Origin: an archaeon | GTDB taxonomy: Archaea; Micrarchaeota; Micrarchaeia; CAILAH01 | Reading direction: 5' to 3' | DNA: 64,000 nt | NCBI GenBank assembly: GCA_024274875.1 | Contig: JAJSAH010000009.1 | Span: forward strand, 8,303 to 72,302 | Shown here: in pieces, positions 380 to 51,971 of the stretch | How the letters are laid out: each line of letters begins with the position of its first letter | Numbering within the stretch: the stretch's first letter is position 1 | Program-made: the position numbers and the translations under genes | The notes under the pieces: generated by a model | Databases searched by the model: none | What the model saw: only the letters and a program-made list of their open reading frames with translations | Told to the model about the DNA's origin: nothing

Positions 380-760
380 ATGATGAAGCAATTGACCATC
401 ATAGTAGAGAATAAAGCTGGGGCGCTCGCGGATGTGACTGAGGCGCTCGGCAGAGGCGGAGTTAATATTATATCGATATCTGCGCAAGGGTTTGAGAACA
501 CAGGAATAATAAGAGTCCTTACCACAGATGTTAATACTGCGCTTAATGAGCTCAGCAAAGCAGGATACAATGCAATAATAAACGATATAATCGTGCTCAA
601 GATGATCGATAGGCCTGGTGAATTGTACAAGGTTGCAAAAAAATTGTCTCGTGAAGGGATTAATCTAAGATCTGTGTACATAATTGGAAAAGAAAATGGA
701 AAGACCGTTGTTGCAATCGATCCAGAAGATTATGAAAAAGCACTTAAGATTATTTCCTAA
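380..760 (+). CDS. ACT-domain protein (tandem small-ligand-binding ACT-like folds)
   Basis: Two repeats of the ACT pattern are present: LTIIVENKAGALADVTEALGRGGVNIISI and VLKMIDRPGELYKVAKKLSREGINLRSV. I chose the ATG at 380 because GAGGTG lies about 8 nt upstream. The ORF track starts at a GTG at 371. Confidence 0.7.
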   Translation: MMKQLTIIVENKAGALADVTEALGRGGVNIISISAQGFENTGIIRVLTTDVNTALNELSKAGYNAIINDIIVLKMIDRPGELYKVAKKLSREGINLRSVYIIGKENGKTVVAIDPEDYEKALKIIS

Positions 761-1130
761 TTATTATATTTCCTTTTGAATTGAGCACTGCGAACTCACC
801 TGTGCTTGCAGGCGCAGTTGAATAATACTTTTCCGGAACTATGCAAATATATGGGTTATACGGATCGCCTATATGCACCTCTCTTGCATCTCCGTTGCTG
901 AAGTTCAACTGCTCATTTGAGTAGAAAACATACTCTGCGCCTTCGCCGCTCATCTTTGCATCAGTTATGGTCTTTGATAAAGATTCGCATAATCTCTCCT
1001 TCATAAGCAGTGAAATCTGATGAGTATAAAGAGCATTTTGAGCATGAATGATCGCTATAAGAAACGCAAACAAAAGAGATAATGCTGAAAGCGCAAGCAT
1101 AAAATCGAATGTAATCTGAGCGCGCATCAT
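750..1130 (-). CDS. Type IV pilin-like protein (class III signal peptide)
   Basis: The N-terminus MMRAQ-ITFDFMLALSALSLLFAFLIAII has a short charged leader, then Gln at +1 and a hydrophobic helix. The start overlaps the upstream gene stop by 4 nt (ATGA). Confidence 0.6.
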   Translation of the reverse strand: MMRAQITFDFMLALSALSLLFAFLIAIIHAQNALYTHQISLLMKERLCESLSKTITDAKMSGEGAEYVFYSNEQLNFSNGDAREVHIGDPYNPYICIVPEKYYSTAPASTGEFAVLNSKGNIIIRK

Positions 1131-1846
1131 GACACCCTAATATTAAGAATAATTGTCTCATTTTCTCCGCTGTTGCTCATGAGATGCATGAATGCTTTAA
1201 TGTCCGCGCTGGAATCAGAATAAACTGAGACATCAAGCTCTTTGTATTCCCCTCCTTCTATCACTGCTGAAGTCCAACTTGGGTCAATATTAACATTTGA
1301 AGGATTATCTATTGAAACCTTAATCACCGACTCACTATATCCCGGATTACGAACCTTTATCGTCTTTGAAGAGGTTTTGCCTTTTTCTGCATTCAGATAT
1401 ACAATTACTGCATCAGTTGTTATCGAAGGATCGTATGTTAAGTAAACATACCCATTGTGCGAGACAGCATATACTTCATAATCACCAGGTTCGAAACTTA
1501 TGTTGCCTCTCACAGGAACATCAAACGGTTGCGGGATGTCTTTTATGCCATATTTATGTTCGAGCCGAAGGTTTATCAGATTATCAGCGAGGTATGATTG
1601 TTCAGGAACTACTGTACTAGGTATATGCAAATTCGTTTTTTGCATAGAACCTGCTCCGCTCTCATACGCATTTTTGGCATTGCGCGCAAGCATGCGCAGG
1701 CTGTTCTCAGACATTTTTGCGCTTAATGAGATTTGCATGTCCTCAAATGCGCTTTGCGATGTTGCAAGAATTATGCCAAGCACAAGAAGAGATACCGAAA
1801 GTATTGAAATAAGCTCTATCGATGCCTGCGCTCTTGCATATGCCAT
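1127..1846 (-). CDS. Type IV pilin-like protein (class III signal peptide)
   Basis: The N-terminus MAYARAQ-ASIELISILSVSLLVLGIILA has Q at +1 and E at +5, as in prepilins. The remainder is beta-rich and extracellular-looking. Confidence 0.65.
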   Translation of the reverse strand: MAYARAQASIELISILSVSLLVLGIILATSQSAFEDMQISLSAKMSENSLRMLARNAKNAYESGAGSMQKTNLHIPSTVVPEQSYLADNLINLRLEHKYGIKDIPQPFDVPVRGNISFEPGDYEVYAVSHNGYVYLTYDPSITTDAVIVYLNAEKGKTSSKTIKVRNPGYSESVIKVSIDNPSNVNIDPSWTSAVIEGGEYKELDVSVYSDSSADIKAFMHLMSNSGENETIILNIRVS

Positions 1847-7446: not shown

Positions 7447-8427
7447 ATGGCGGAAGTTAATATGGTTCAAGCAATAAACATGGCTCTTGCGCAGGAACTC
7501 AGCAGAGATGAGAGAGTAGTTGTTTTTGGCGAGGATGTTGGCAAGAATGGAGGCGTGTTCAGAGTTACAGATGGACTGCAAGCAAAGTTTGGTGAAAAGA
7601 GAGTTTTTGATACGCCGCTTGCGGAATCTGGAATAATGGGCGTTGCAGTTGGGATGGCGTATGCTGGATTGCGGCCAGTTCCTGAAATACAATTTGATGG
7701 GTTTACATGGTTGGCATACAACCAAATAAATGCGCACATGGCAAGAGTGCGCAACCGAACGCGAGGGAAATTTGAGATGCCCATAGTGCTGAGGTTTCCT
7801 TATGGAGGTGGCATACGCGCGCTTGAACTACATGCTGAACCTGTTGAAGGCATGTATGCAAACATACCTGGGCTAACAATAGTTATCCCATCAGGACCAT
7901 ACGAAGCTAAAGGATTGCTTGCATCAAGCATTGAAAGCGATGACCCTGTGTTGTTTATGGAACACAAAAGATTGTACAGGGCATTCAAAGAGGAGGTGCC
8001 TGAAGAGAGGTATAAAATTCCCCTAAGAAAATGCAGGATTGCCAAAGAAGGGAATGATATAACAATAGTTGCTTGGGGAGCGATGGTGAGAGTTGCTGAG
8101 AATGCCGCAAAAGAGATTGAAAGGGAAGATGGAACTGATTGCGAAATCATAGATGCAAGGACCATCAAGCCGCTCGATGATGAAACTATTGTGAATTCGG
8201 TCAAGAAGACTGGCAGAGTTGTTGTTGTCCAGGAAGCGATGCAGAGCTTCAGCGCGAGTTCGGAAATCATCGCGCGCATATCAGAGAAGGCAATGTTCAA
8301 CCTTGAAGCGCCAGTAAAGCGCGTTGCAGGGTTTGATGTGCCTGTTCCTCTGCCAAAACTGGAAGAATATTTTCTGCCTAACGAGCGAAGAGTGAAGCAT
8401 GCAATTAAAGAGGTTATGAGATATTGA
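7447..8427 (+). CDS. 2-oxoacid dehydrogenase E1 component, beta subunit
   Basis: VVVFGEDVGKNGGVFRVT..L...FGEKRVFDTPLAESGI.G.AVGMA and FMEHKRLY are present, with a C-terminal transketolase-like domain. The ATG at 7447 follows GGGGAGTGAGAG. Confidence 0.9.
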   Translation: MAEVNMVQAINMALAQELSRDERVVVFGEDVGKNGGVFRVTDGLQAKFGEKRVFDTPLAESGIMGVAVGMAYAGLRPVPEIQFDGFTWLAYNQINAHMARVRNRTRGKFEMPIVLRFPYGGGIRALELHAEPVEGMYANIPGLTIVIPSGPYEAKGLLASSIESDDPVLFMEHKRLYRAFKEEVPEERYKIPLRKCRIAKEGNDITIVAWGAMVRVAENAAKEIEREDGTDCEIIDARTIKPLDDETIVNSVKKTGRVVVVQEAMQSFSASSEIIARISEKAMFNLEAPVKRVAGFDVPVPLPKLEEYFLPNERRVKHAIKEVMRY

Positions 8428-28212: not shown

Positions 28213-31200
28213 ATGAAATCATACAAGCTTCGAAAGTTTATCATCACCATTGCTGCCGTGCAGCTTATGCACTCCGCTCCTGCAAAAAGCAGTGCAGAAA
28301 GTATAAAAAGAATAGGCAATAACATATTAGTGGAGGATATCATGGTTGCGCAGGCAATAAAATCCAAGGAAGAGCGAGAGAGGGAAAAAATCCTAAACAG
28401 AATCGCAACGGTTGCAGTCCGCCTTGACCAATTAGGTTATACTGGACTCAAAAAAGATGAAGATTACATGAAAAGTAGGTATCTTGGCAAAACCAAATAT
28501 AAGTGGCTGTTTAGCAATGAAAAACTTCTGCCGGATAAACTGCGCAATCTGCTAAAAACGTTCGATAAGAATAAGAATTGGCTTGGGCTGAAAATGTTGT
28601 TTTTGTATGCTGCGACAAGAGATATGAGCGCGCAGGAGATAAAAAAATATGCAAATAGCATGCAAAAACATGTAAATGAGGCAGAACAGCGCATAAAACA
28701 AAGAAAAAGGGTAAGAGTAGAAGTGCCAAAAAGAAAAACAACTGATAATGATGCGCTCATAAAAAAACTGCTTGATGAAAGGTTTGCTCCTACTGAGAGA
28801 GAAATAAGTGCGCTGAACAAAGTAAGCGCCGAGGAGATTATGAGCGTTGCAGAGGAGGAGCAGAATATAATGCGCAAGCGCATGATGTTTGCGCTGGCAG
28901 ATTATGTAAAAGATGGAAATAAGCTTGGGGAAGTTAATGCTAAGCTTTTCTACCGTGCGGCAATACTGGTCTATAAAGGTGAAAAATGCTACTTATTTGG
29001 TCTCAATAGTGAGTTTGATGCATTGGATACCTACATAAAAACAAACTACGATAAATTAAGCGAATCTGAAAAAAAGCTGTTTGCGGCATACTTATATTAT
29101 AATGTGCGACATTCGTTGGAGGATTTCCAAAAAATATTTCCAAAAAAGAGCAAAACAAATATTGATTATTTCAGAGGAGTTATGGCAAATTTGAAAGATA
29201 TATACGCGCAGTTCAGCCGCATTTCATACTTAGATGATGAAAAAACCATCGAACAGAGATTGCAGTTCATCGAAAAAAGGATAAGGAAGATGTTTGGGAA
29301 AAATGTTTCTGCAATAACTGTGCTTAAAACAAGAATAGATTTTGAGAGCATGAATAACCTGTTTCCAGATGAAATGAAGGCAGATTACAGCATGAAAAGG
29401 CAATCGTTTGAGGATTTGGTCAGGACTGCTTCAATGGAGATTGGAGAGGAGCAATTGGCGGATTATGAAGCGAGCAAGCTGAAGGGCGTGCAGCCTCCTC
29501 AACTCACAAATGAAGAGCAGGCTCTCCTCAACTCATTCCTGTCCAACGCAACATATATGGATGCATACCTGCTCGGAGATTTCTGGAATAAGTGCGCCTT
29601 TAAAGATCCATACACTGCAAGAACCGTGCTGAGAACATTGCTTGCGATCTACAAAACTGATCCTTATTTAGTGCAACATGCGGCTAAATATGTTCTCCCA
29701 ACATTAAGCAGAGTGAGCAACGATGAATCAGAGTTTGTTAGGTTGCTTGCAGGGTTTGGCGCAGAGTTTTCAAGGAGGGCTTCGCCGTCAAGAGACCTCT
29801 CTTCTCTGTTCCAGCGCAGATATTATATCGAGAAGTTTAGGGAGATTAGTAAAAAACTTCCGAAAGTGTTGGGTTTTGATTATAGGGATCTCTCATTTGA
29901 TTTATGGGAAAGGCCTGGCGGTTATGAGCATCCTGATTACTACAATGTAAAAAAATCTAGGGTTATTCCTGAGGAAAGAAAATCTATTCCTGAGTATACA
30001 AGCATGCGCAGATATAATCTCAGTTTATATCCATACAGAGTTCCGCTGCTTGACCCAGGAAGATTGCATCTTAATCAAGATGTTCTAAGCATGATGCATC
30101 CGGAAGCTAAAGAAGTGTATTCATACGCAAACAATCTGTTCAATCCAGAGATGAGAGCATTTAGAGCAGGCGTTCCAAACCCATATAAAATACGCAGGTA
30201 TAATCCGGATAGAATTTACAAAAAGATGATGAGGATTTTTGCAGATTTTCCGGGCGTTGCATATTCGGGCGAGCTCACATCGGGAAATGCTGTTGGAGGA
30301 GCATATGCAAATGAAGAGTTGTGGGAATTGGGGGCGCGCGGCGCTATAGCAACTACCTCTGGAGGCGCCAGCAGTGAAGTCATCGGGGGCAAAATTTCAG
30401 GGAGGGGAGAGGTTCGAGGACGCGCGGATGCCTCGATGATTCCAATCTCAGGACCTGTGCAAGTCCACAAAGCGTCCATGAAAGGCAATTGGAGAGAGGA
30501 GGAATATGTTGAAGGTGCGCTGCAATCTTTTATACAAGTTGCAAAGGAACAGCGAAAAGATATGTTAGTTTATGTATATGGATATGACAGGCTGCCTGAA
30601 GAAAAAGGAAAGTTTAGAGAAAGGTTGTATTATGTTGATAAGGAGGGCAATTATGTGCAGATTGCAGCAGGGCAGGATGATTACAGCAGGGTTTACAATT
30701 ACGCCTTCGGTGAGGCAGATTATAGCCCTATTCTGCTCAGCGCAAAAGCTCAGCACGATTTGCATGATGAGTATGCATTCAACGGAGGCGCGCTCGGATT
30801 TGATGTGAAGGATTATGTATCTATGTTCGGAATAGCAAATCTTCCAAAAGGCATACCAAAAGAAAAGTATGAAAAAGCTGAATTTGGGGTAGGGGCTGGA
30901 GTAAAGGTTTCGAAAACGCCGGATATAATTGTTGCCAATTTCAGAGGGTTCATCCCTAATGAAGAAAGCCGTGCAAAAGGGATATATGTAGGTGAATTAC
31001 AGTGGCTCAGAATACCTAAAGATGAGCGCGCATACGCGCACATTGCGAGAGCAGTAGGGGGCGTTGGCACAGTAGGGGGGGAGTACAGAGTTGAATGGAC
31101 GGGTGAGAGGAAGTATGGGGTAGGAGCGTCTGGTGGTTTGGAAACAAAAAACATTATCCAAAACTTCCCGCAACTTGATGAAGATGCGAGCGAATACGCA

Positions 31201-32337
31201 AGGAGCGTTAAAGAAATTCTTGTGAATGTTTACCATTGGTCTGAGGATGCGGCTGAAAAGCAGGGATGGTTTATTGCAGGCATGTACATCTACTCCAAAC
31301 TCTATAACCTCGTTGATAACGCAGATGATAAGGAGATTGCGAAGCATTATGCGCAGGCAATATTCATGTACTGGTCTGACAAACACCAGATTTTGGTAGG
31401 CGGTGAAAAAATGCCGCACTGGAACAGCGTGCGCAATGAAATTGATGCAGCTGTCAGGAATGCAGAAATGTACCCTGGCCGTGCGGATGAATATTACCAA
31501 CGCGCGTATGACAACATAAAAAACATTATGGAAAAAGATGACCTGTGGAGGTTCAGCATCGGATGGGGTTGGGACGGCAAAGTATATGTGGCAGGCACAT
31601 TCAAAAGCGATGAGTATGCAAACCTCCGCGGCATAATAGCGATAAATGAAGATATGCTTATAGATATGTATGGGCAGGCATACGTATATTTTGGAGAAAG
31701 ATTCATCGATGCTTTTGGAGGAGTAGTGTGGAGAGATATAGGGGAGATTATAAGTTTGAGAGCAGATCTCGGACCAACCTTTTCAATTGATGGAGATTAT
31801 TCAGGCATGTCTGGCAGAGGGCTAGTGAGGTTTGCAAAGGATAATCTTGCATTGATATTGGGCGGCATGGGCGGATACAAAGACCTTAAGACCGCAAAGC
31901 TTGATCAGTGGCAGATAGTGCTCACAGGAAATGTGAAGAACATCGATGAGGGAAAATTAAGCGAACACACATTCTATGTTGGAGTTAATGTCGCCAATAA
32001 GGAAGCTGTGATTGTTGATGAAAGCGAATGGGAGATGTGGAGAGCAAAGGCCGGGTATGAATGGAGCATGATGGAAATAGATGATTCTGGAATACATATA
32101 TTTGCCGATGCATCTGTTGGGAGGATCAATAACATAAGCGAAGGAAGAAATGATTGGATAGCCACAGGCCAGTTTGGGTTTAGGTTGGAGGATTATTTAA
32201 GCATAGCGATGTTCGGAGGGTTCAATCCACCAGTGGGGATTGGAGATGTGAATATGTGGTGGCCTAATTATGTGGGAAGAATCCCGTTCTCAATGGATAG
32301 CTGGTTTATTGGACTGAAAATAAGCGGAACATTTTAA
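28213..32337 (+). CDS. Giant secreted protein of unknown function (1374 aa)
   Basis: The signal peptide is Sec-like: MKSYKLRKFIITIAAVQLMHSAPA. The N-terminal half is K/E-rich and helical. The C-terminal half is Gly- and aromatic-rich with alternating-polarity segments and ends ...WFIGLKISGTF. No internal TM helix or known catalytic motif was recognised. Confidence 0.7.
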   Translation: MKSYKLRKFIITIAAVQLMHSAPAKSSAESIKRIGNNILVEDIMVAQAIKSKEEREREKILNRIATVAVRLDQLGYTGLKKDEDYMKSRYLGKTKYKWLFSNEKLLPDKLRNLLKTFDKNKNWLGLKMLFLYAATRDMSAQEIKKYANSMQKHVNEAEQRIKQRKRVRVEVPKRKTTDNDALIKKLLDERFAPTEREISALNKVSAEEIMSVAEEEQNIMRKRMMFALADYVKDGNKLGEVNAKLFYRAAILVYKGEKCYLFGLNSEFDALDTYIKTNYDKLSESEKKLFAAYLYYNVRHSLEDFQKIFPKKSKTNIDYFRGVMANLKDIYAQFSRISYLDDEKTIEQRLQFIEKRIRKMFGKNVSAITVLKTRIDFESMNNLFPDEMKADYSMKRQSFEDLVRTASMEIGEEQLADYEASKLKGVQPPQLTNEEQALLNSFLSNATYMDAYLLGDFWNKCAFKDPYTARTVLRTLLAIYKTDPYLVQHAAKYVLPTLSRVSNDESEFVRLLAGFGAEFSRRASPSRDLSSLFQRRYYIEKFREISKKLPKVLGFDYRDLSFDLWERPGGYEHPDYYNVKKSRVIPEERKSIPEYTSMRRYNLSLYPYRVPLLDPGRLHLNQDVLSMMHPEAKEVYSYANNLFNPEMRAFRAGVPNPYKIRRYNPDRIYKKMMRIFADFPGVAYSGELTSGNAVGGAYANEELWELGARGAIATTSGGASSEVIGGKISGRGEVRGRADASMIPISGPVQVHKASMKGNWREEEYVEGALQSFIQVAKEQRKDMLVYVYGYDRLPEEKGKFRERLYYVDKEGNYVQIAAGQDDYSRVYNYAFGEADYSPILLSAKAQHDLHDEYAFNGGALGFDVKDYVSMFGIANLPKGIPKEKYEKAEFGVGAGVKVSKTPDIIVANFRGFIPNEESRAKGIYVGELQWLRIPKDERAYAHIARAVGGVGTVGGEYRVEWTGERKYGVGASGGLETKNIIQNFPQLDEDASEYARSVKEILVNVYHWSEDAAEKQGWFIAGMYIYSKLYNLVDNADDKEIAKHYAQAIFMYWSDKHQILVGGEKMPHWNSVRNEIDAAVRNAEMYPGRADEYYQRAYDNIKNIMEKDDLWRFSIGWGWDGKVYVAGTFKSDEYANLRGIIAINEDMLIDMYGQAYVYFGERFIDAFGGVVWRDIGEIISLRADLGPTFSIDGDYSGMSGRGLVRFAKDNLALILGGMGGYKDLKTAKLDQWQIVLTGNVKNIDEGKLSEHTFYVGVNVANKEAVIVDESEWEMWRAKAGYEWSMMEIDDSGIHIFADASVGRINNISEGRNDWIATGQFGFRLEDYLSIAMFGGFNPPVGIGDVNMWWPNYVGRIPFSMDSWFIGLKISGTF

Positions 32338-32346
32338 ATAAAAAAA

Positions 32347-32766
32347 TTATTCGCTCTTCTCAGCGAATTCATTAAGCTGCGTTTCGAGCTCATCTAATTG
32401 CTTGCTTATGCGCTCTAATGTCCTGCGCATGCTTGTGAGCTCATACGTCAGGTTTTGGAAGTATACCCTATCTGCAAACGGCGATATCATAGCACCCTGC
32501 GCTGCCGGAGGTTCCTGTTTTGCTGATGGTTGCGGCGCCTTGGCAGCGGTTTTCTCGACGACTGCTGATTTTTGCTTGCTCATAGCTCTCATCTCCTTCT
32601 TTACTTCTCTCACCCATTTTCTAAGATTAACATATGGCAGGAATTTGTGCTTCCCTGTTTTCTTCGTTATAATCTCCCTTAATTCTGCCAGTTTAGTGAC
32701 GGTTATGCTCTCGCCCTCCCAATCTTTAAGCTTCTTCATGATTATGCTTTTAACTTTGTCATCCAC
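32347..32766 (-). CDS. Hypothetical protein with a Pro/Ala/Gln linker and a C-terminal coiled coil
   Basis: The ORF has clean boundaries. Its C-terminus reads LTSMRRTLERISKQLDELETQLNEF. I recognise no family. Confidence 0.45.
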   Translation of the reverse strand: MDDKVKSIIMKKLKDWEGESITVTKLAELREIITKKTGKHKFLPYVNLRKWVREVKKEMRAMSKQKSAVVEKTAAKAPQPSAKQEPPAAQGAMISPFADRVYFQNLTYELTSMRRTLERISKQLDELETQLNEFAEKSE

Positions 32767-32819
32767 TTGACCACCTAATAAGTTATTAAGTAAAATAAAT
32801 ATAAATGTAAAAATAGCAG

Positions 32820-33095
32820 TTATTCTCTTCCAAGAACAATCTCTATGGCTGATACTTTGCTTTTGCTTCCGTCCTCGCTTGTCAGCTCTTCAGTCATTAT
32901 CCTAACATCTTTTACTTTAGCATCATTCACAAACCTGTTTCTGACAATCTCTGCAACATCAACTGCCCTGCTTATCACTTTGCCCCTCGCTTTTATAGTG
33001 ACCTCCTTCACGCCGCTGTTAAACTGCGTCACCACTGCCAGCACATAGCTCATTATGTTCTTCTTGCCTACAAACACTACATTCTCATCTGCCAT
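32820..33095 (-). CDS. albA: Alba DNA/RNA-binding protein
   Basis: [50 protein letters not shown] is the canonical Alba sequence. Confidence 0.9.
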
Positions 33096-33151
33096 ATTTA
33101 CACCTCTATTGCTTACCTGCGCTTAAAATTAGGTTGTGCAACATTTAAAAA

Positions 33152-34447
33152 TTATTCACGAGCTGAAATCTGGCTGAATTCAAGATTTTGGACCTGCAAC
33201 ACTCGTGTATTAGACGGCACATCTCTGCTAACCACAACTCCAGGACCTATCATCGACTCACTCCCTATTTTTCTGCCAGGCAGTATTATTGAATTAACGC
33301 CAAAATTCACTCGAGACCCTACCACACAACCCATCTTTTTCCTTCCCGTATCGCAAAGCTTTCCATTTATGCGCATTTTCACATTCTTGCGGTCGAAACG
33401 CAAGTTCGCCACCTGTGTTGAAGAACCAAAATTGCAGTTCTCTCCTATAACGCTGTCGCCAATGTATGACAGATGTTTTGCCTTACAACCCTTTAGCAAT
33501 ATGCTGTTCTTTATTATAGTGGAGCCACCTATTTCGCATTCTTCGCCTATGAAAGAATGCGGCAATATCTGAGAGTATGAAGTTATCTTTGCGCCTTTGC
33601 ATATATAGCAAGGCCCATGGATGTATGAATCGCTGACCTCAGCGCCTTCCTCGATAACAACGCCTACGCCTTTTATCACGCAGTTGTCAACTGACCCTCT
33701 TAAATCATTCTTCCCGCGCATTTTCATGTACCGTTCGTTTGCATCAAGAAGGGCCCACGGCGTGCCAATATCATTCCAATAACCCTGCGCAACTACCCCA
33801 TACAACTCTCCCTTGTTGCATAAAGCATAAAGCGCGCTCGTAATCTCATACTCACCTCTTGCGCTCAACTTAACCTTTTCTATTTCATCAAAAAATGTTT
33901 TGCCGCATGCATATACGCTCGTGTTCGCAAGATTGCTCTTGGGATTTTCCGGCTTCTCAATTATATCAGTGATTTTACTATGCTCAAGAACTGCAACACC
34001 AAAACGCCTGGGGTTATCCACTTCCTTCAACAAAACCGAACTGCCTGACTCATTTTGTTCATGAAAATTGCGCAAACGCTCCACATCTTCATAATCAACT
34101 AGTATGTCACCTGCGACCACCATCACCGGCTCATCACCAACAAACTGCTTCGCGGATGCCACTGCGCCTGCAGTCCCCTTCATCTCAACATCTTGAACTG
34201 AATATGAAATGCGAACATTTCCAAATGAATCTCCAAATATGCTCTCAATCATTGACTTGTTTTCTCTGCTTACAACTATGCATACTTCATGTATCCCAAG
34301 CCTGTTCATATGCTCTAAAGAATACTGCATTATGGGCTTTCCACCAACGGGAAGAAGGCATTTTGAGATGTTTTCAGTAACAGGCAGAAGCCTTGTGCCC
34401 CTTCCAGCAACCATTATGATTCCTTTCATCATTACACCTTCAAGCAA
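33152..34447 (-). CDS. Bifunctional sugar-1-phosphate nucleotidylyltransferase / acetyltransferase (archaeal GlmU-like)
   Basis: The N-terminal motif is MVAGRGTRLLPVTENISKCLLPVGGKPI. The C-terminus has hexapeptide left-handed beta-helix repeats (IGENCNFG, VGSRVNFG, and so on). The true start may be the internal ATG at about 34429. Confidence 0.8.
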   Translation of the reverse strand: MLEGVMMKGIIMVAGRGTRLLPVTENISKCLLPVGGKPIMQYSLEHMNRLGIHEVCIVVSRENKSMIESIFGDSFGNVRISYSVQDVEMKGTAGAVASAKQFVGDEPVMVVAGDILVDYEDVERLRNFHEQNESGSSVLLKEVDNPRRFGVAVLEHSKITDIIEKPENPKSNLANTSVYACGKTFFDEIEKVKLSARGEYEITSALYALCNKGELYGVVAQGYWNDIGTPWALLDANERYMKMRGKNDLRGSVDNCVIKGVGVVIEEGAEVSDSYIHGPCYICKGAKITSYSQILPHSFIGEECEIGGSTIIKNSILLKGCKAKHLSYIGDSVIGENCNFGSSTQVANLRFDRKNVKMRINGKLCDTGRKKMGCVVGSRVNFGVNSIILPGRKIGSESMIGPGVVVSRDVPSNTRVLQVQNLEFSQISARE

Positions 34448-35691
34448 GACCGAACCAATTCATTGATTTCAGAGTGAATATTTTTAACTGCATTCTCATC
34501 AGGGTGTTCAGTCGTGATGCGTATTATATCCTGCGTATTGCTTGCGCGCACAAGGACTTTTACGCCTTTATGATTAAATAGGAGGCCGTCCATCGTATTA
34601 ATATCTGTTATGCCAAGCGAATCCACTTTTTTAAGAATGCGTTCCATTACATCTGCTTTGCTGTTTCCTTTAAGCATTACGGCGTCACGAATTGTGTGGT
34701 AGGGTTTGTAGCTCTTAAACCCGCGTTTGCAGTGCATCTCAGCAAACTTAAGCGCTGCATACACTCCGTCCGCTGAAAAGAGCCAATCAGGAAATATGTA
34801 TTCGCCGCACGGCTCGCCGCCGAATGATGCGCCTGCTGATTTCACTTTCTCGCCAACATAATTGCTGCCCACAGGAGTTATGAGCACGCTCACGCCTTTC
34901 TTGCGCAACTCATCCGCAACTAATTGCGATGCTTCAACAGTGGTTACGAAAACATCGCCCTTGCTGCACATGTAGTCTGCCATGTTAAGCAATTGGACAT
35001 CTTGGTTCATGATGCCTTCGCGCGTGACAATCCTGCACCTGTCTGAATCTGCATCATGTGCAACTGCGAAATCTGCAGAAACGCGCTCAACAAACTCGGC
35101 GAGGTAAGGAATATTCTTGTCGGGTTCGGATGGCCTGGAGAATGGCACTGAATGATCTGCATTTATAGTGATTGCTTTCGCGCCGAGCATGCGAAGCGCG
35201 TGCGCAGTGAAAGCAGATGATGAGGCATTTCCAAAATCTACAACTATCTTGGGAGATCTGCGCTTCACTGCTTCCGAGTCCAGCCCGCGCACAGCATCTT
35301 TAATGTATACATACCTGAAATCCCTGCAGTCATACTCATTCTGAGATGGCATGCGAGATTTTATTGGACGATCAGGAATGCTTGCCTCCAAACCGGAATG
35401 AAAAAGCTTTATGCCGTTGTCTTCCTCAGGATTGTGCGATGCAGTAATCATTATGCCTAAGCATGAATTAATCTTTGTGTAGCGGGAAAGATACGGGGTG
35501 GGACCTACTCCGAGATTGCGCACTTCGTTGCCGTTCTTTAAAAGCATGGAGGATATGTGATGGTGAAGGCATGCGCTGGACGGTCGAGTGTCCCTGCACA
35601 CCGCAACAACTCCAACGCAACCCATTTTCTCAATAACGCTGGAGATCTTAACGACAAGCTCATGCGAGAACCTGCCTCTTAAATGATACAT
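34432..35691 (-). CDS. Phosphohexomutase (PGM/PMM/GlmM family), paralog 1
   Basis: The active-site serine loop is TASHNPEEDNGIK, the metal loop is HDADSDRC and the sugar loop is GGEPCGEYIF. Confidence 0.85.
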   Translation of the reverse strand: MYHLRGRFSHELVVKISSVIEKMGCVGVVAVCRDTRPSSACLHHHISSMLLKNGNEVRNLGVGPTPYLSRYTKINSCLGIMITASHNPEEDNGIKLFHSGLEASIPDRPIKSRMPSQNEYDCRDFRYVYIKDAVRGLDSEAVKRRSPKIVVDFGNASSSAFTAHALRMLGAKAITINADHSVPFSRPSEPDKNIPYLAEFVERVSADFAVAHDADSDRCRIVTREGIMNQDVQLLNMADYMCSKGDVFVTTVEASQLVADELRKKGVSVLITPVGSNYVGEKVKSAGASFGGEPCGEYIFPDWLFSADGVYAALKFAEMHCKRGFKSYKPYHTIRDAVMLKGNSKADVMERILKKVDSLGITDINTMDGLLFNHKGVKVLVRASNTQDIIRITTEHPDENAVKNIHSEINELVRSCLKV

Positions 35692-45545: not shown

Positions 45546-46414
45546 GCGCAGGAGCCATAGAGAGCATTTTTAGATTTTCGCTGTTTTTTATTGGCGCGGC
45601 AGCGGTTCAGCACATTCTCATGCAGAAAATGTACAGGGCGTTGTTCGTAAAACTGAAAAATGCAGGCATAATAGGGGGCATGTTCAGCCGGCCTGCGGTG
45701 ATTGCGCATGAGTTAGTGGGCCATCTCATTCCAGCTATGTTGAGCGGAAGCAGAATAATCGATGTTGAGTTGAGGGAAGAAAGAGGCCATGTTGGAGTGA
45801 AATATGCAAAAAACCTGTTTGGAATGATTTCTGTGACAATTTCAGCGTTCGGACCTGCATTCTTCCTTCCTTTGTTGTTTATAGCGTTGTATGCATACCT
45901 TAATGCATACGATATTAGTTTGTATCTCACGTCTGGGGACCTCTCCAATAAAATATTTGGATTGATTTCAGATGTGTCAAGGCTTGATGAAATAAAAGAT
46001 ATAATTGTCCTGTATGCAGCAGTTGCGATTGCGCCAAGCGCAGCATCGAGCACAGGAGATATAAAAATGTTCATCTCATTCGTAAAAAACAACAAAGGTC
46101 TTGCAATAATCTGGGCAAGCGTTTGGCTCATCGTGTTCTACATAAGCTATGCGTTGGGGACGCATGCCACAGACATTGGAGCAGCAATAATCATAAACTC
46201 TTTTGCGCATTACATTTTCATGTATGCGATATCCTTTGCGGTGTTGTTTGCCATAGTTAGAGGATGGGAAAAACATGCGCTTATGGAAGGCGTTGCTGCA
46301 ATGATATGCTTTCCAGCAGCAGTAAAATTCATATTCCCATCTTTTGAATATCCTCTTATTATAGGGTTGCTTGCATCTGATTTAGTTGTGCTTGCGCTTA
46401 AAAATAAAAAATAA
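45542..46414 (+). CDS. Polytopic membrane protein with an HExxH motif (putative zincin-like membrane metallopeptidase)
   Basis: AHELVGHLIP lies near the first hydrophobic segments. About 6 further TM helices follow. Confidence 0.5.
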   Translation: MSAGAIESIFRFSLFFIGAAAVQHILMQKMYRALFVKLKNAGIIGGMFSRPAVIAHELVGHLIPAMLSGSRIIDVELREERGHVGVKYAKNLFGMISVTISAFGPAFFLPLLFIALYAYLNAYDISLYLTSGDLSNKIFGLISDVSRLDEIKDIIVLYAAVAIAPSAASSTGDIKMFISFVKNNKGLAIIWASVWLIVFYISYALGTHATDIGAAIIINSFAHYIFMYAISFAVLFAIVRGWEKHALMEGVAAMICFPAAVKFIFPSFEYPLIIGLLASDLVVLALKNKK

Positions 46415-46755
46415 TGCAGGCATATACTATTATGGATATGTTCAAAATCTTCAAGAGGGTTGTGAAAAGGCTGGTTGAGAAAAGCGGTCGAATACGGGAT
46501 AAAGTGGCTGACATACCCTCATCTTTCCTGGTTCATTTTGCAAGATTGAAGCAAAAAGACGAACAAAAGTTTGAGAGTTATCTTATAGCAAGCGTTGATG
46601 AAGAAGATAGGGATGATGCTGCTGCAAACGCATCGCAGTTGGTTGAGTATGTTGATGAGATACAGAAAAAAGGGAGGAACAGGAACAAAATTTCAAGAAA
46701 GGGCAGGAGAATGGGAAGAGCAAGAAAAGGCGCTAAGCGAAAAGCAGTCAGGTGA
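46414..46755 (+). CDS. Hypothetical protein with an Arg/Lys-rich C-terminal tail
   Basis: The ORF is translationally coupled to the upstream gene (TAATG). I recognise no family. Confidence 0.4.
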   Translation: MQAYTIMDMFKIFKRVVKRLVEKSGRIRDKVADIPSSFLVHFARLKQKDEQKFESYLIASVDEEDRDDAAANASQLVEYVDEIQKKGRNRNKISRKGRRMGRARKGAKRKAVR

Positions 46756-47203
46756 TGTAAACGCTTGCTGTGATTTTAGAGAGTTTGCCATCGTAGGAAA
46801 CTATGCGCTCCGCTGACACAATTTTTGATGGATTTGCGGGCTCATCGCCGCATGTTGCAAGGATATTTCCATCTTTATCCGAAATAGAAATAAAGTAATT
46901 GTGAATGAGACCTACCTTATCTATATCTATATTGCACCCCTGGGCAAATTTTTGTTCATTTACGCTGTATCCATCCTCATCTAAGAGTTCTCCGGGCAAC
47001 ATAAGGTTGTCGAGCGCTCTGTTTGCTTCTGCAACCAGGTCTGCATCTTCCGTACCTGCAGAACTGCTCAATGCAGACCAATATGTTAGCAGTATGCCCA
47101 TGGCTATCAGAAATATGATTGCGCCTCCAAGCGCATCATATGAGAGCACCTGCCCCCTCTTACCTTTTACGTATTGTGATAACATTATCATCACCATATG
47201 CAC
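46748..47203 (-). CDS. Type IV pilin-like protein (class III signal peptide)
   Basis: ...KGKRGQ-VLSYDALGGAIIFLIAMGILLTYW has a basic leader, G then Q at +1, and a hydrophobic helix. Confidence 0.6.
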   Translation of the reverse strand: MHMVMIMLSQYVKGKRGQVLSYDALGGAIIFLIAMGILLTYWSALSSSAGTEDADLVAEANRALDNLMLPGELLDEDGYSVNEQKFAQGCNIDIDKVGLIHNYFISISDKDGNILATCGDEPANPSKIVSAERIVSYDGKLSKITASVYIT

Positions 47204-47591
47204 CTTGCGTTATAGATACATATTCATATGACCCTACCTTTAAATAATAGAAGATGCTGTTTCCATTTACAGTTGTGTTTCCCTGCACAACTCCTCTTAA
47301 CTCATCGCCCTCTATTGTTATGCCTGATCCTTTCACGACAACAGGCAAAGTCACATTCACTTCCATGTTGTCAACATGCTGAGACAATAAGTTTGCATCG
47401 CGCACATTTTCAGCAACATAAATTAACATCGATTTGAATCTCTGCTGGGAACGCTCAGAGAACTCGCCGCTTGAATGCATGAAAATAAATGATGAAAACG
47501 ATGCAGCAATCATCAGAAAAAATGCAAAATAAGTGAGATATTCTATCGATGTCTGTCCCTTGCATCCTTTAAACAAATTCCTTGCGCACAT
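47160..47591 (-). CDS. Type IV pilin-like protein (class III signal peptide)
   Basis: With the start at the internal ATG, the N-terminus is MCARNLFKGCKGQ-TSIEYLTYFAFFLMIAASF, with Q at +1 and E at +5. Confidence 0.6.
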   Translation of the reverse strand: MCARNLFKGCKGQTSIEYLTYFAFFLMIAASFSSFIFMHSSGEFSERSQQRFKSMLIYVAENVRDANLLSQHVDNMEVNVTLPVVVKGSGITIEGDELRGVVQGNTTVNGNSIFYYLKVGSYEYVSITQGAYGDDNVITIRKR

Positions 47592-47997
47592 GAACTTTTC
47601 CCCCCATATTTTCGAAAACGAATGAATAGGTTCCCCCGCTTGGAAGATCGATCTCTGCATACTCAAACATTGCCGGCCCCATCCTTACCACATCTGACTC
47701 TAAATTGCCGTATTTTACAAATATGGAAACAGATGTTCCATTGAGCGTGATCTTCTGCGCATGCTTGGGCAGGACTATAAGCCTGCTTATTTTAGTGCCT
47801 TCTGATTGAACGCCAACCATCGCCCCATACTTTATGAACTCGTTGCACGCAGCTTCTGCTTGCGAAAGGCTTGCATAATACTCTTTCTGCGGCGCAGAAA
47901 CATAGAAATACATAAACACTGGAACGGTTAAGAGCAGGAACATTGCGACAACTGCAAGAAATTCAACTGCTGGCTGGCCTCTCCTCATATCAATCAA
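47569..47997 (-). CDS. Type IV pilin-like protein (class III signal peptide)
   Basis: MIDMRRGQ-PAVEFLAVVAMFLLLTVPVF has Q at +1 and E at +5. Confidence 0.65.
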   Translation of the reverse strand: MIDMRRGQPAVEFLAVVAMFLLLTVPVFMYFYVSAPQKEYYASLSQAEAACNEFIKYGAMVGVQSEGTKISRLIVLPKHAQKITLNGTSVSIFVKYGNLESDVVRMGPAMFEYAEIDLPSGGTYSFVFENMGGKVHVRKEFV

Positions 47998-49516
47998 CCC
48001 TTATCTCATCCATTCCGTAATCGCCCGCTCGCCCATCGCTTATCCTAAACTTTCCTATAACCATTTCTTCTTCATCTATGCGGTTTCCATCTATCACAAG
48101 CGGGTCGTTGCACATGCCCATCGTTATGCAACCCGGCATGCCCATAATTTTATCTCCAGGAATGTTCCTGTAATACTCATTAGCTACTCTCGAACGAGGC
48201 TGTCTTGCCCATTCGCCAACTGCGAATGTTTCCAAGCCAAGCAAGCCATCGTTAGCATTAAGGTTTCCCTCAAGCCTGCTTAGAATGCTTGGTCCGGAAT
48301 GCATTGCAAAATAATTTGCGCATAAGACTGCTGCGCGCTGGTCCTCAATATTGTATATCACGGCATCTTCACGCGTTGGTGGATATTCTTCCGTAGTTTC
48401 AAACTCCCTAAGCAAATTGGAAATTAGAACTTTGTCTCCTGAGCTTACGGAATGCGAAGTGATTTTAACAAATGGAACATTGGGCTGCGTTCCTTGGCCG
48501 TTGTAGGCATGCACCTTCCCCCTAACTTCTTCATATGTGTCAAACATGGAACCCCAATTAACCGAACTGCACCCCTGTGGGCTTACTATGTAATACCTTC
48601 CGCAATATATGCATGGAGATCGCTCAACCCAAGTTTCAATCTCATAGTTGCATGTTGAACCGTCCTCAGCGATTATTGTCCCAGAACTGGATGAATATTC
48701 GCTGTTATCCTCGCCCTCTAGAATAACCCCTCTAAACCTTCCAAGTTTGCTTCTCCACGCGTCGAGCTCATCGCCTTTAACAAGCAGGATTTTATTAAAC
48801 CACGCATTTTCACCTAACGCATCGGCGCGGCTTGCGCTGACAACCTCTCCGTATGCCCAACCTCTCCCGTATTTTCCATTAGCGACGATATCAACATCTT
48901 CAAGCTCAGCAACCGGAATTGAAGAGTTTATTATGGGTCTCAGCACTGGGGCGCACTCTGATGGGTTAGGAAGCGAAGAGCATTGCTTGGACGACTCAAC
49001 CGCAAGCATAGGGTCGTACACGCCCTGCACGCTGAATATTACCTCCCTGCTCAACGATTTGCTCACTTTCACGCCGTTTCCAAATGCGGATATATCTGTA
49101 CTTACAGATAACTTTGCGTCATACGGTCCAACAAGCTCCAACTGGCATGTAGGGTCTGTGTATGACAATTCAAGCCCCATATCTGACGCGCGGAGAGCAA
49201 CCGAATTTAAGTATGCAACAAACTTTTGCGTGAATTTGCCGCAAATCTCTTCGTCAGCGTCAGTTTGCAAATATTCACCATTGTTTATCACTTCCATATC
49301 AACATCGTGCAACGACCTCTTAGCGAGTTGAGATAATGAATAGTTAAATGCAGGAGAATCAAGGTCTGAAAACAATGATGAAAGCGCGCGCATGCGCGCA
49401 TGCGAAGAGCGTGTTTTTTCCTCTATACTAACTCTCTGCGATTCTATGCTCAGTATGAGCGCCAGGAAAAATATGAGAACAAGCATCGATAATGTGAGCG
49501 CAAATCCCTTCTTCAT
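47990..49516 (-). CDS. Large pilin-like or pilus-associated protein (508 aa) with a prepilin-type N-terminus
   Basis: MKKGF-ALTLSMLVLIFFLALILS has a G-then-F junction. A large, presumably extracellular domain follows, with no motif I recognise. Confidence 0.55.
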   Translation of the reverse strand: MKKGFALTLSMLVLIFFLALILSIESQRVSIEEKTRSSHARMRALSSLFSDLDSPAFNYSLSQLAKRSLHDVDMEVINNGEYLQTDADEEICGKFTQKFVAYLNSVALRASDMGLELSYTDPTCQLELVGPYDAKLSVSTDISAFGNGVKVSKSLSREVIFSVQGVYDPMLAVESSKQCSSLPNPSECAPVLRPIINSSIPVAELEDVDIVANGKYGRGWAYGEVVSASRADALGENAWFNKILLVKGDELDAWRSKLGRFRGVILEGEDNSEYSSSSGTIIAEDGSTCNYEIETWVERSPCIYCGRYYIVSPQGCSSVNWGSMFDTYEEVRGKVHAYNGQGTQPNVPFVKITSHSVSSGDKVLISNLLREFETTEEYPPTREDAVIYNIEDQRAAVLCANYFAMHSGPSILSRLEGNLNANDGLLGLETFAVGEWARQPRSRVANEYYRNIPGDKIMGMPGCITMGMCNDPLVIDGNRIDEEEMVIGKFRISDGRAGDYGMDEIRVD

Positions 49517-50082
49517 ACTGACACCACCACTCTTACAAACGCATTTTCATACCCTGCACCTTCAACAGCAAATTCATCAGGAGAATACAAATCGCTCGGC
49601 AGCATGCACACATTGGCGCCTGCATTCAACCCCTCCCCTGGATCGCAGTAATCGCCATACTTGTATGGAGTTGTATAATGCTCGTTTTCAAGTATTACAG
49701 GAATGGTTGAAACAACAGATATGCTGCGCAACGCGCCATCCTTTTCGCGCGCGCACGATTCAAAACTCTTCCATTTTTCGCCATCAAAATATTGTATTTT
49801 TATACCATACTGGCTTGGAACCAAACTCATTATATCCTCGCACAGCGCAGGGTTTTCATTGAGCATATGCACCATAGGGACTTTTCTAACCGTGCCATCA
49901 CCTGCATTATAATCAACGGGCTTTTGCAAGAGCACATTCATTATGCTTCGGCCATATGAATACAGCGCTTCATCCTGAAGGTATGAATAATCGCGTGAGT
50001 ATTGATTCAGCATGCTCACAAACGCAACAACAATTAAGAGCGAAATAAATGCGTCAAGCATGAATACGAAGCCGCGTCGCAT
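49513..50082 (-). CDS. Pilin-like protein with a prepilin-type N-terminus (first gene of the cluster)
   Basis: MRRGF-VFMLDAFISLLIVVAFVSML is the N-terminus. Its stop overlaps the next gene start by 4 nt. Confidence 0.55.
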   Translation of the reverse strand: MRRGFVFMLDAFISLLIVVAFVSMLNQYSRDYSYLQDEALYSYGRSIMNVLLQKPVDYNAGDGTVRKVPMVHMLNENPALCEDIMSLVPSQYGIKIQYFDGEKWKSFESCAREKDGALRSISVVSTIPVILENEHYTTPYKYGDYCDPGEGLNAGANVCMLPSDLYSPDEFAVEGAGYENAFVRVVVSV

Positions 50083-50127
50083 GATTGAATTTATGCTATC
50101 ATATTAATAAACTTTTTCTACCGTGCG

Positions 50128-51879
50128 TTAATTCTCGCGCACATACTTTTGGCTTTTATACATATCTATTATTTCATCTACGGTTGTGGCGTCCTCGGGC
50201 CGCTTATCCTCTCGCATCTCGCCAACCATGCGCGGAAACCTTAACGCATATCCTGGCTCATCGCCTACTTTTCCACAGGTATGGAGAGGAGACTTGGTAA
50301 TCTCATCAGCTTTAACCGTAATCACATAACGTGGCTCAACCCAATAAGTTGGCTTAATTATTGAATCGACGCGCGGATTGGGGGACTTAACCTTAATCTT
50401 CGATAAAATGCGCCTGAGCGATTGCATCTGCTCCTCGCTGAATCCAGACCCCACCTTTGCAATCGTGCGGAACATATCATCATGCGAATCATACACTGCT
50501 CCCAACACTCCTCCGAATCCAAACTTTGCGCGCGAACCTTTCCCTGCATAATAACCCACTATTGCAATATCTATGGTGTCGCTAAGCTCGCCTTTATAAG
50601 AGCGCTTCAGCTTTATCCATGCAAACTTTCTGGCCCCCGCAATATACGGTGCATTTAAATCCTTAGCCATCAACCCTTCCAAACCGCGCGATATGAAATC
50701 ATTAAAATGCTGCTCGATTTGGCAGGCAGTTTTAACAATATAACCTTCAGAGATGCGCATAACTCCGCTATTGCTTTTGGAGATGAGAGATTCCAACGCT
50801 TCCCTCCTTTTCCTAAGCGGCAGACCCATTAAATTCTCGCCGTCCAAATATAGTATGTCAAACGCAAATAACTTCAATGGCATTTCAGCAGCCTTCTTCT
50901 GCACGCCGTGCTTTCTCTTCCGCGTTATAGTCTGCTGAAATGGGTAGAACTCGCCCGTGTTCTCGTTATACGCCAAAGCCTCCCCTTCAAAAATTGCCTC
51001 CTCGCATTTCAGCTCATTTTTTATTGCATTAACAATCTCTGGAAGCATGTCAGTCATCCTCTCCATCCTGCGAGAGAATATCTCAACCTTACCATCCTTT
51101 TTGTGGCATTGGAGCCTAAATCCATCATACTTTGCCTCAACAAGGCATGGCCCAAGCTTTTCTATTATTTCTTCCGCTGATGGCAGGCGCTCGGCGAGCG
51201 CGGAACGCACAGGAGTAAACACTTGCACGCCAATATCCTTGAGCGAAGCAGGATTTTTGCAATACTTGAATGCTATTAGCCCAAGGTCAGATAGAAGATT
51301 GTATGCGTGTTCTATGTATTCTCTATCGCTTTTGTCGCCTTTGCGCATAAAAGAAAGAGCATCCAAAACCGTTGGGTCGCCGATACCCAACCTCAACCTG
51401 CCTATGGGGAAACGCGCTATATACCTTGCTTCAACTGGAGATGCATTGTTAATGAGTTCTGCGAGAAGAGAGATTTTTAAATCCTGCGAACCATGCCCTG
51501 ACGCAACAGCAATCTTATAAAATGTATCATACACCTTCTTTATAGTAAGCTTTTGCGTAAACAGTGAAGTTTGCTTCTTTTTCGCGCACAACTCCTCTGC
51601 AACCGTGCCCAAATCCCCCATCTTTAAGTACAGCTTCTCAACCTGCTTCTTCGAGTATCCTGTGGCTTTGCACACAGCTTCTTCAACCAACCTCTCGCCA
51701 AGACCAACATCTATGCCTTTAAATGATGGCGCAATCCTGCCCTGGAGCAGATACACTGACAGCTTCACATCAGCAGGAGGGAGAGATGAGAACAACTGCG
51801 CGATTATTCCAACCATTGCATTCCTCGATGAAGTTGCTTCCAATTTGCTCATCGCGCCCGCTAGAACTGAAAAATTCAT
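50128..51879 (-). CDS. lig: ATP-dependent DNA ligase
   Basis: The adenylation motif is EAKYDGFRLQ (KxDG). EGLMAK and WIKLK are also present. The start is set at MNFSVLAGAMSKLEATSSRN. The ORF track has an 18-codon upstream extension. Confidence 0.9.
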   Translation of the reverse strand: MNFSVLAGAMSKLEATSSRNAMVGIIAQLFSSLPPADVKLSVYLLQGRIAPSFKGIDVGLGERLVEEAVCKATGYSKKQVEKLYLKMGDLGTVAEELCAKKKQTSLFTQKLTIKKVYDTFYKIAVASGHGSQDLKISLLAELINNASPVEARYIARFPIGRLRLGIGDPTVLDALSFMRKGDKSDREYIEHAYNLLSDLGLIAFKYCKNPASLKDIGVQVFTPVRSALAERLPSAEEIIEKLGPCLVEAKYDGFRLQCHKKDGKVEIFSRRMERMTDMLPEIVNAIKNELKCEEAIFEGEALAYNENTGEFYPFQQTITRKRKHGVQKKAAEMPLKLFAFDILYLDGENLMGLPLRKRREALESLISKSNSGVMRISEGYIVKTACQIEQHFNDFISRGLEGLMAKDLNAPYIAGARKFAWIKLKRSYKGELSDTIDIAIVGYYAGKGSRAKFGFGGVLGAVYDSHDDMFRTIAKVGSGFSEEQMQSLRRILSKIKVKSPNPRVDSIIKPTYWVEPRYVITVKADEITKSPLHTCGKVGDEPGYALRFPRMVGEMREDKRPEDATTVDEIIDMYKSQKYVREN

Positions 51880-51971
51880 AACAGCATTTCGAGAATAAAG
51901 AATAAAAATTATGCATTTAGTTATTCGAAACATTTAATGAAATGGAGTCCTTAAATTGTTCTCCATCATCG

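Follow-up and report, generated by a model that had tools for sequence, protein, structure and literature searches.

We identified a five-gene operon on the minus strand of a Micrarchaeota genome (GenBank assembly GCA_024274875.1) that is probably a minor-pilin cassette, with each of its genes encoding a different type IV pilin-like protein. The genes, here called g1 to g5, occupy positions 46748-50082 of the 64,000-nucleotide stretch that was analysed (the window; positions 8,303 to 72,302 of contig JAJSAH010000009.1), which corresponds to contig C9 of an assembly of 833 kb (~0.83 Mb) in 24 contigs that is approximately 90% complete. The cassette, about 3.3 kb in length, is lineage-wide in Micrarchaeota, where its gene order is fixed, and most likely provides a type IV pilus with its minor subunits and a large cap. 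Among archaeal type IV filaments, sets of accessory pilins are a known class, to which this five-family set of pilin-like proteins belongs; it is not a new machine. Its five consecutive open reading frames (ORFs) are listed below; a slash marks the predicted cleavage site, from which residues are numbered.

49513-50082, minus strand: g1, ORF of 189 amino acids (aa), N terminus MRRG/FVFMLDAF, F at +1 and D at +6
47990-49516, minus strand: g2, ORF of 508 aa, N terminus MKKG/FALTLS, hydrophobic helix without an acidic residue
47569-47988 from an ATG (alternative TTG at 47997), minus strand: g3, 139 aa, MRRG/QPAVEF, Q at +1 and E at +5
47160-47591 from an ATG, minus strand: g4, 143 aa, MCARNLFKGCKG/QTSIEY (..KGCKG/QTSIEYLTY), Q at +1, E at +5 and Y at +9
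46748-47203, minus strand: g5, 149-151 aa, ..KGKRG/QVLSYDA, Q at +1 and D at +6, DUF7287-like

Every one of the five N termini (5/5) has the feature of a class III signal peptide, namely a short basic leader with a final G and, next to it, a hydrophobic stretch of ~20 residues. The genes are closely packed, with overlaps of 4 to ~40 nucleotides (nt), or a 1-nt gap, between neighbours. The ORFs agree with a first-pass annotation of the window, which had described five overlapping minus-strand genes, each with a basic leader and a hydrophobic helix. The N-terminal strings given there, with Q at +1 in three proteins, E at +5 in two and a G-F junction in two, are all correct in the ORF translations.

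The residues around the predicted junction are kept family by family over 45-74 homologues each, in that -1 is G or A, +1 is F or Q and either +5 or +6 is acidic, behind leaders that are 3-15 residues long. The sequence logo of g1 reads [KR]A/FIFSLDAF, with D at +6 in 38/45 loci, and that of g5 reads KG/QYFSFDAI, with D at +6 in 53 of the 54 homologues. In the g3 (KG/QSSLE) and g4 ([RK]G/QVATEF..Y) families, E is found at +5 in 59/74 and 63/72 homologues, respectively. Only the g2 family (KKG/F[LF]F[TV]V) is without an acidic residue in the helix (none from +1 to +20 in 67/69 homologues), whereas the other four keep E at +5 or D at +6. These conserved -1, +1 and acidic residues support the prepilin-type (class III) reading of the first-pass annotation, as do the A24 peptidase gene and the ATPase/TadC loci of the genome, the linkage of the cassette to a pilus locus in one family and the structure model of g5. 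From their sequences, the five proteins are thus supported as class III signal peptide substrates with a predicted cleavage.

The run of five such genes exceeds what chance would give. A strict, home-made class III-like pattern ([KR][GA][QF], then a hydrophobic stretch without K, R or P) is matched by 20 of the 877 gene-like ORFs in the genome (2.3%), which form clusters on contigs C7, C9 and C12 in addition to a few singletons. Five adjacent matches would arise by chance with a genome-wide expectation of ~5e-6. This genome of ~0.83 Mb spends at least 20 genes, or ~2% of its gene-like ORFs, on pilin-like proteins.

The cassette recurs across the lineage. A pattern scan with the g5 alignment over one genome per GTDB species confirmed 135 related loci, all from Micrarchaeota (the labels of these relatives are Micrarchaeota, Micrarchaeia, Anstonellales or Bilamarchaeaceae). 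With profile hidden Markov models (HMMs) of the five families, the order g1-g2-g3-g4-g5 was recovered in 68/68 Micrarchaeota loci that have at least 3.6 kb of sequence upstream, so the comparison of cluster order with relatives proposed in the first-pass annotation returns an identical five-family order throughout. The flanks of loci L007-L024 also contain these five types of gene in unchanged order. Homologues of g2 in relatives are ~500-550 aa long (six-frame search), and an exhaustive search of a library of 1.84 billion proteins returned 1246 cluster representatives of g2 at E <= 0.001. Two profile searches of a 5.8-billion-protein set, aimed at haloarchaeal DUF7287 proteins, gave only Micrarchaeota among the best 120 matches. 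A tblastn search against plasmids returned noise only, and a literature search found no description of this Micrarchaeota cassette.

Outside the N-terminal helix, the families are diverse. Proteins g3 and g4 are full-length paralogues (hhalign probability 97.8%, E 9e-13); profile comparison shows that g1, g2 and g5 have the N-terminal helix alone in common with each other and with the rest. In the g1 family, the invariant residues are F5, D10, F12, C146 and C159, the two cysteines lying in the globular part (alignments A1 and A8). The g2 family has a conserved Cys-rich C-terminal region with the motifs GPS.F.R, GIE.F.VG.WA, SR.D.E[YF] and KGMPGC...MC (alignment A2), and its length ranges from 228-278 aa in paralogous sets to ~430-710 aa in orthologues.

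As the first-pass annotation had noted, the window contains no assembly ATPase, platform protein or prepilin peptidase; all of these are encoded on other contigs. The genome-wide search that it suggested, and whose failure would have told against pilins, finds all three. There are four PilB-type (T2SSE) ATPases, on C6, C10, C12 and C18, and eight T2SSF (TadC platform) domains, in gene pairs on C7, C10 and C12 and in a two-domain protein on C17. A single Peptidase_A24 gene is present at C19:2586-3356 (32.8 bits, compared with a Pfam cut-off of 26.5). According to one study (PMC13705601), two platform genes per locus are a hallmark of system 1 (Epd-like) archaeal filaments, and in DPANN archaea the ATPase and platform genes stay together while the pilin genes are scattered.

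In some relatives, the cassette lies close to such machinery. In GTDB family f4 (loci L027-L029), it is found ~3 kb behind a run of genes for an ATPase (640 aa), two TadC proteins and a small pilin (KKG/QATIEYLVLL). The best matches of these f4 genes in our genome are in the C12 locus 30554-34743, the pilin of which passes the Pfam Class_IIIsignal cut-off; this correspondence rests on the TadC and pilin genes, as the ATPase scores nearly as well against its C10 paralogue. In locus L092, a C7/C6-type machine is located 6 kb from the cassette. The sequence context suggests that the cassette belongs with type IV filament machinery, and no single partner can be named because the linkage differs, being to a C12-type machine in f4 and to a C7/C6-type machine in L092. 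An apparent ATPase adjoining g5 in locus L087 proved to be an unrelated 756-aa protein.

BLASTP searches with g1-g5 against all ORFs of the genome returned no paralogues; profile HMMs alone revealed two further pilin-like sets, at C12:23582-28624 and C7:4554-6536, with the following members.

C12 set: g3', 679 aa, MRG/QSSAEL
C12 set: g4', 145 aa, SSRG/QSSVEF
C12 set: g5', 170 aa, SRG/QLFTAD
C12 set: g1', 139 aa, MKKA/FVFTMD
C12 set: g2', 278 aa, MKKG/VFMTF
C7 set: g5'', RRG/QIFVQD
C7 set: g1'', MRG/FVFSID
C7 set: g2'', MLKG/FMYTL

The C12 set lies behind a KaiC-like ATPase gene and adjoins an ATPase-TadC-TadC-pilin locus, and the C7 triad g5''-g1''-g2'' is accompanied by a convergent Q-type pilin. 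The order in the window can be obtained from the C12 order, g3'-g4'-g5'-g1'-g2', by cyclic permutation. Judged by these N-terminal types, the recurring core across the sets is g5-g1-g2 (D at +6, D at +6 and no acidic residue, respectively), to which subunits of the Q+1/E+5 type are added.

Among curated families, DUF7287 (PF23958) comes closest to the cassette. Protein g5 scores 24.1 bits against this family (cut-off, 27) over model positions 2-155 of 157, 9/11 g5 orthologues match it (best E 4e-5) and several more distant orthologues carry a precomputed PF23958 match; the C7 paralogue of g5 has a weak match of 18.6 bits, below the cut-off. In a set of 14 control genomes, DUF7287 was found in Haloferax volcanii only. 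Protein g5 is therefore likely to be a distant DUF7287 member on sequence grounds, with the window protein itself below the cut-off. Homology of the whole cassette to DUF7287-type haloarchaeal genes is not supported, given that DUF profiles and 69-member scans find nothing at g1 or g2 and that only 2 of 13 g4 members touch DUF7266, below threshold (E 0.0035). Proteins g3 and g4 carry the Q at +1 and E at +5 of the Epd-type motif QxSxExxxL, which g1, g2 and g5 do not fit.

We modelled the structures of two members with AlphaFold2. The g5 model (73-sequence alignment; predicted local distance difference test (pLDDT) score, 83.6) consists of a helix at residues 20-65 followed by a four-stranded antiparallel sheet, a predicted arrangement that has the general lollipop layout of pilins and matches the pilin fold only qualitatively. 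The g2 model (17-sequence alignment; pLDDT, 78.5) has a helix at residues 2-52, two more helices, a four-stranded sheet and additional mixed alpha/beta domains.

Several results weigh against the identification of the operon as a minor-pilin cassette. In Pfam and NCBIfam searches with the five proteins, the sub-threshold match between g5 and DUF7287 was the only one, and no curated pilin model passed its cut-off. Per-member Pfam scans of g1 and g2 (69 members each) gave no match, and Class_IIIsignal (PF04021, formerly DUF361) was matched by only 1/17 g3 and 4/13 g4 members, with E values of 0.04-0.07 that are below the cut-off. Applied to the whole genome, the DUF7288 profile found no match and the DUF7261 profile found nothing at g1 or g2, its lone match being weak, unrelated and on C14. 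Sequence-profile searches of the PDB were empty, with no pilin or pseudopilin. Foldseek searches of the PDB found no significant fold match for the g2 model (best E 0.03) and no solved pilin or pseudopilin for the g5 model (best E across g2 and g5, 0.03-0.04). The most conserved motifs of g2 (SR.D.E[YF], KGMPGC...MC and IG.F, at residues ~430-490) are modelled at a pLDDT of only 35-47; this region could be a metal site, a disulfide site or an interface whose folding requires a partner. The g2 profile detects its family in 158/301 sampled Micrarchaeia species and in 82/169 high-quality genomes, which leaves about half without a detectable g2. Most loci, including the one studied here, have no ATPase or platform gene within 10 kb of the cassette, and the differing linkage in f4 and L092 led us to reject a firm assignment of a partner machine.

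Two of these results, the lack of any curated pilin model above threshold for the five proteins and the failure of the fold searches to recover a solved pilin, would favour a different explanation, in which the N termini are ordinary Sec peptides or uncleaved anchors of unrelated envelope proteins that share an operon. We consider this very improbable, because the -1, +1 and acidic positions are conserved although neither a plain anchor nor a Sec peptide has need of them: G or A at -1, F or Q at +1 and the acidic residue at +5 or +6 are kept per family in dozens of genomes. A charged D or E within the hydrophobic stretch is also atypical of the Sec h-region, and leaders of just 3-15 residues, the position of the cassette within a pilus locus in family f4 and the recurrence of the same N-terminal types beside the C12 machine all argue for pilins. 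The first-pass annotation had itself raised the prospect of ordinary Sec or transmembrane (TM) N termini lacking a conserved junction; what we find is a junction with residues that are conserved throughout the lineage.

We hypothesize that the cassette acts in the initiation and capping of a pilus. Each of the five proteins would be inserted in the membrane through its N-terminal hydrophobic helix, and the single A24 prepilin peptidase (C19) is predicted to trim the basic leader after the conserved G or A. The five mature proteins would then associate by their N-terminal helices to give a small complex that primes, and later caps, a filament produced by one Epd/Tad-like machine (a PilB-type ATPase with two TadC-type platforms), the bulk of the filament being a small major pilin of the Q+1/E+5 type that would be encoded elsewhere, for which the genes at C12:34288-34743 and C7:26030-26488 are candidates. 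Protein g2 would occupy the distal end, with no subunit above it, whereas the D+6 proteins g1 and g5, together with the E+5 paralogues g3 and g4, would make up the layers below it. Micrarchaeota are ultra-small episymbionts; contact between these cells and their host archaea has been seen microscopically, and its molecular basis is not understood. The ~450-residue Cys-rich domain of g2 would be a candidate adhesin for the host cell that the episymbionts rely on.

The distal position is proposed for g2 because no other subunit has a helix that is free of acidic residues and no other is large. In bacteria, a subunit of this kind, exemplified by GspK and PilX, is the first to be assembled and forms the distal cap. 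By this analogy, g2 is best read as an acid-less cap or adhesin that would be displayed distally. The minor-pilin set could be real and g2 nevertheless a basal or anchoring subunit, or a membrane-retained assembly factor, which we regard as possible but somewhat doubtful. Archaeal minor pilins have been placed near the base of the pilus by analogy with minor archaellins (Makarova et al., PMC4858521). The part of g2 that is conserved most strongly consists of the C-terminal Cys-rich motifs, which resemble an interaction surface more than a fast-evolving adhesin, and Pfam and NCBIfam scans found no lectin or adhesin domain in it. A basal placement is harder to reconcile with the wide variation in g2 length between lineages, which fits an exposed module, and with the fact that g2 alone lacks the acidic residue, the mark of the distal subunit in bacteria.

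In 43/60 related loci (L038-L113; for example, L041:5121-6507), g1 is immediately preceded, on its own strand, by a gene for a Peptidase_S49 (SppA-like) protein. Between the two there is often a conserved ORF of ~110 aa with one TM helix and the motif C..G.TQ.C..G.CSG.S.C..G.WS.C. In the genome studied here, the S49 homologue is on another contig (C22:2014-3021), and a DNA ligase gene precedes g1 instead.

This neighbourhood raises a further alternative, in which the five proteins form a short type IV filament-derived structure of their own, such as a pseudopilus or piston or a bindosome-like assembly, perhaps together with the S49 protease and the Cys-rich membrane protein. The cassette is mostly unlinked to ATPase and platform genes, the S49 gene and the small Cys-rich ORF are frequent upstream neighbours, and, with three sets and at least three machines in the genome, some of the sets could serve purposes other than pili. 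Type IV filament machines of archaea have been proposed to be functionalized for other tasks (PMC13705601). We nonetheless consider a separate structure unlikely. The combined Pfam and NCBIfam searches of the five proteins and the 69-member scans of g1 and g2 detected no substrate-binding or enzymatic domain in g1-g5; the location of the S49 gene on C22 here means that the link is not obligatory; and the linked loci also hold a small Epd-type pilin, which fits a normal pilus. The identification as a minor-pilin cassette is therefore preferred.

As a minor-pilin cassette, the operon most resembles three known systems. One is the Epd pilus (system 1/clade 1; EpdA-EpdD) of Methanococcus maripaludis, the pilins of which have G at -1, Q at +1 and E at +5, and in which four minor pilins are essential for piliation (PMC3875500). 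Clade 1/Epd loci carry at least five minor-pilin-like genes (PMC4858521). Both systems have at least five different minor pilin-like genes, class III leaders that end in G, before the Q+1 and E+5 residues (in g3 and g4), two TadC-type platform genes per locus and pilin genes that are partly unlinked from the ATPase. By contrast, the junctions differ in three of the five cassette proteins, which have either F at +1 or Q at +1 combined with D at +6; g1, g2 and g5 have no detectable relation to curated Epd families, and g3 and g4 reach Class_IIIsignal only below threshold. The genome also has one A24 peptidase, and no separate EppA/FlaK pair was found in it.

The euryarchaeal clade 2 multi-pilin set (Makarova 2016, Fig. 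4B), represented by haloarchaeal PilB/PilC-linked genes to which DUF7287 and neighbouring DUFs of Pfam now apply, is likewise a fixed cassette of five pilin-like families that include a large one. Protein g5 and its C7 paralogue match DUF7287 over the full model and below the cut-off, and g4 gives a hint of DUF7266. The correspondence does not extend to g1 and g2, at which the DUF7288 and DUF7261 profiles find nothing and for which the 69-member scans gave no DUF match. The g2 model, moreover, is a mixed alpha/beta multi-domain protein and not the all-beta, immunoglobulin (Ig)-like protein described for arCOG02911.

We know of no archaeal minor-pilin complex that has been structurally described. 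The bacterial GspH-I-J-K proteins of type II secretion and the FimU-PilV-W-X(-Y1) proteins of type IVa pili are, like the cassette, groups of 4-5 pilin-like proteins that are co-encoded apart from the major pilin. In each case, the acidic residue of the helix is missing from one large member (g2 here, GspK and PilX in bacteria), and the cassette is proposed to initiate and cap its filament as they do. No chain from these complexes is among the Foldseek (g2 and g5) or PDB-profile matches, so that the operating principle alone is comparable; two cassette members (g1 and g5) have their acidic residue at +6, and the archaeal setting has neither an outer membrane nor a secretin.

More speculatively, the cassette may be the archaeal counterpart of the bacterial minor-pilin priming and tip complex, built with unrelated globular domains into a fixed stoichiometric set in which an acid-less cap is combined with two subunits each of the E+5 and D+6 types. 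Protein g2, for the fold of which there is no solved relative, would in that case be the adhesin through which the pili seize Thermoplasmatales-type hosts, and maturation of the complex would be the task of the S49 protease encoded upstream and of the small Cys-rich membrane protein. We put this forward tentatively, as a possibility that goes well beyond the identification of the cassette itself. The novelty of the system is modest, and lies in its invariant order, the E5/E5/D6/D6/none pattern of acidic residues, the orphan fold of g2, the presence of three sets in 0.83 Mb and the frequent S49 gene upstream. Even so, a five-family cassette of invariant order is a well-defined candidate for the host-contact apparatus of Micrarchaeota, and the pattern of acidic residues (E5, E5, D6, D6 and none) leads to a testable prediction of subunit order in an archaeal pilus. 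Proteins g1-g4 have no Pfam family, and their named homologues are all 'hypothetical' or 'uncharacterised'; giving these families names would help to annotate hundreds of metagenome-assembled genomes.

The limits of the operon can be placed from its surroundings. Upstream of g1 is the gene for an ATP-dependent DNA ligase, the stop codon of which (50128-50130) is separated from g1 by a gap of 45 nt. This gap contains a promoter-like element, and the features that flank the cassette are as follows.

50128-51933: ATP-dependent DNA ligase gene, upstream of g1
50104-50119, minus strand: putative archaeal promoter, read from the sequence as a TATA-like TTTATTAA (50104-50111) with a purine-rich AGAAAAAG before it (50112-50119)
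46414-46755, plus strand: convergent ORF of 113 aa with a very basic C-terminal tail (..KKGRNRNKISRKGRRMGRARKGAKRKAVR)

Because the centre of the TATA-like box is ~25 nt upstream of the g1 ATG, the operon would have its own promoter and its mRNA would be leaderless or nearly so. A scan for bacterial sigma-70 promoters and terminators is uninformative for an archaeon. At the other end, the convergent ORF overlaps the stop codon of g5 by 8 nt, which implies that the operon ends there.

The window also contains a second, two-gene pilin-like pair, which the first-pass annotation had recognized and which is real, as shown by the N termini of its two proteins.

1127-1846, minus strand: pilin-like protein of 239 aa, MAYARA/QASIEL
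750-1130, minus strand: pilin-like protein of 126 aa, MMRA/QITFDF

This pair (750-1846) is outside the operon and is part of the same pilin repertoire. The 239-aa protein is matched by the g3 profile (A3; E 6e-10), which also finds other Q-type pilins of the genome, and its C-terminal part gives a weak hint of an Ig-like domain. On another contig, three consecutive small ORFs at C8:40300-41193 have class III-like N termini with S or F at +1 (MNRG/SISIEY, MHRKG/SISIDL and VRG/FILSLEP) and may be yet another pilin cluster.

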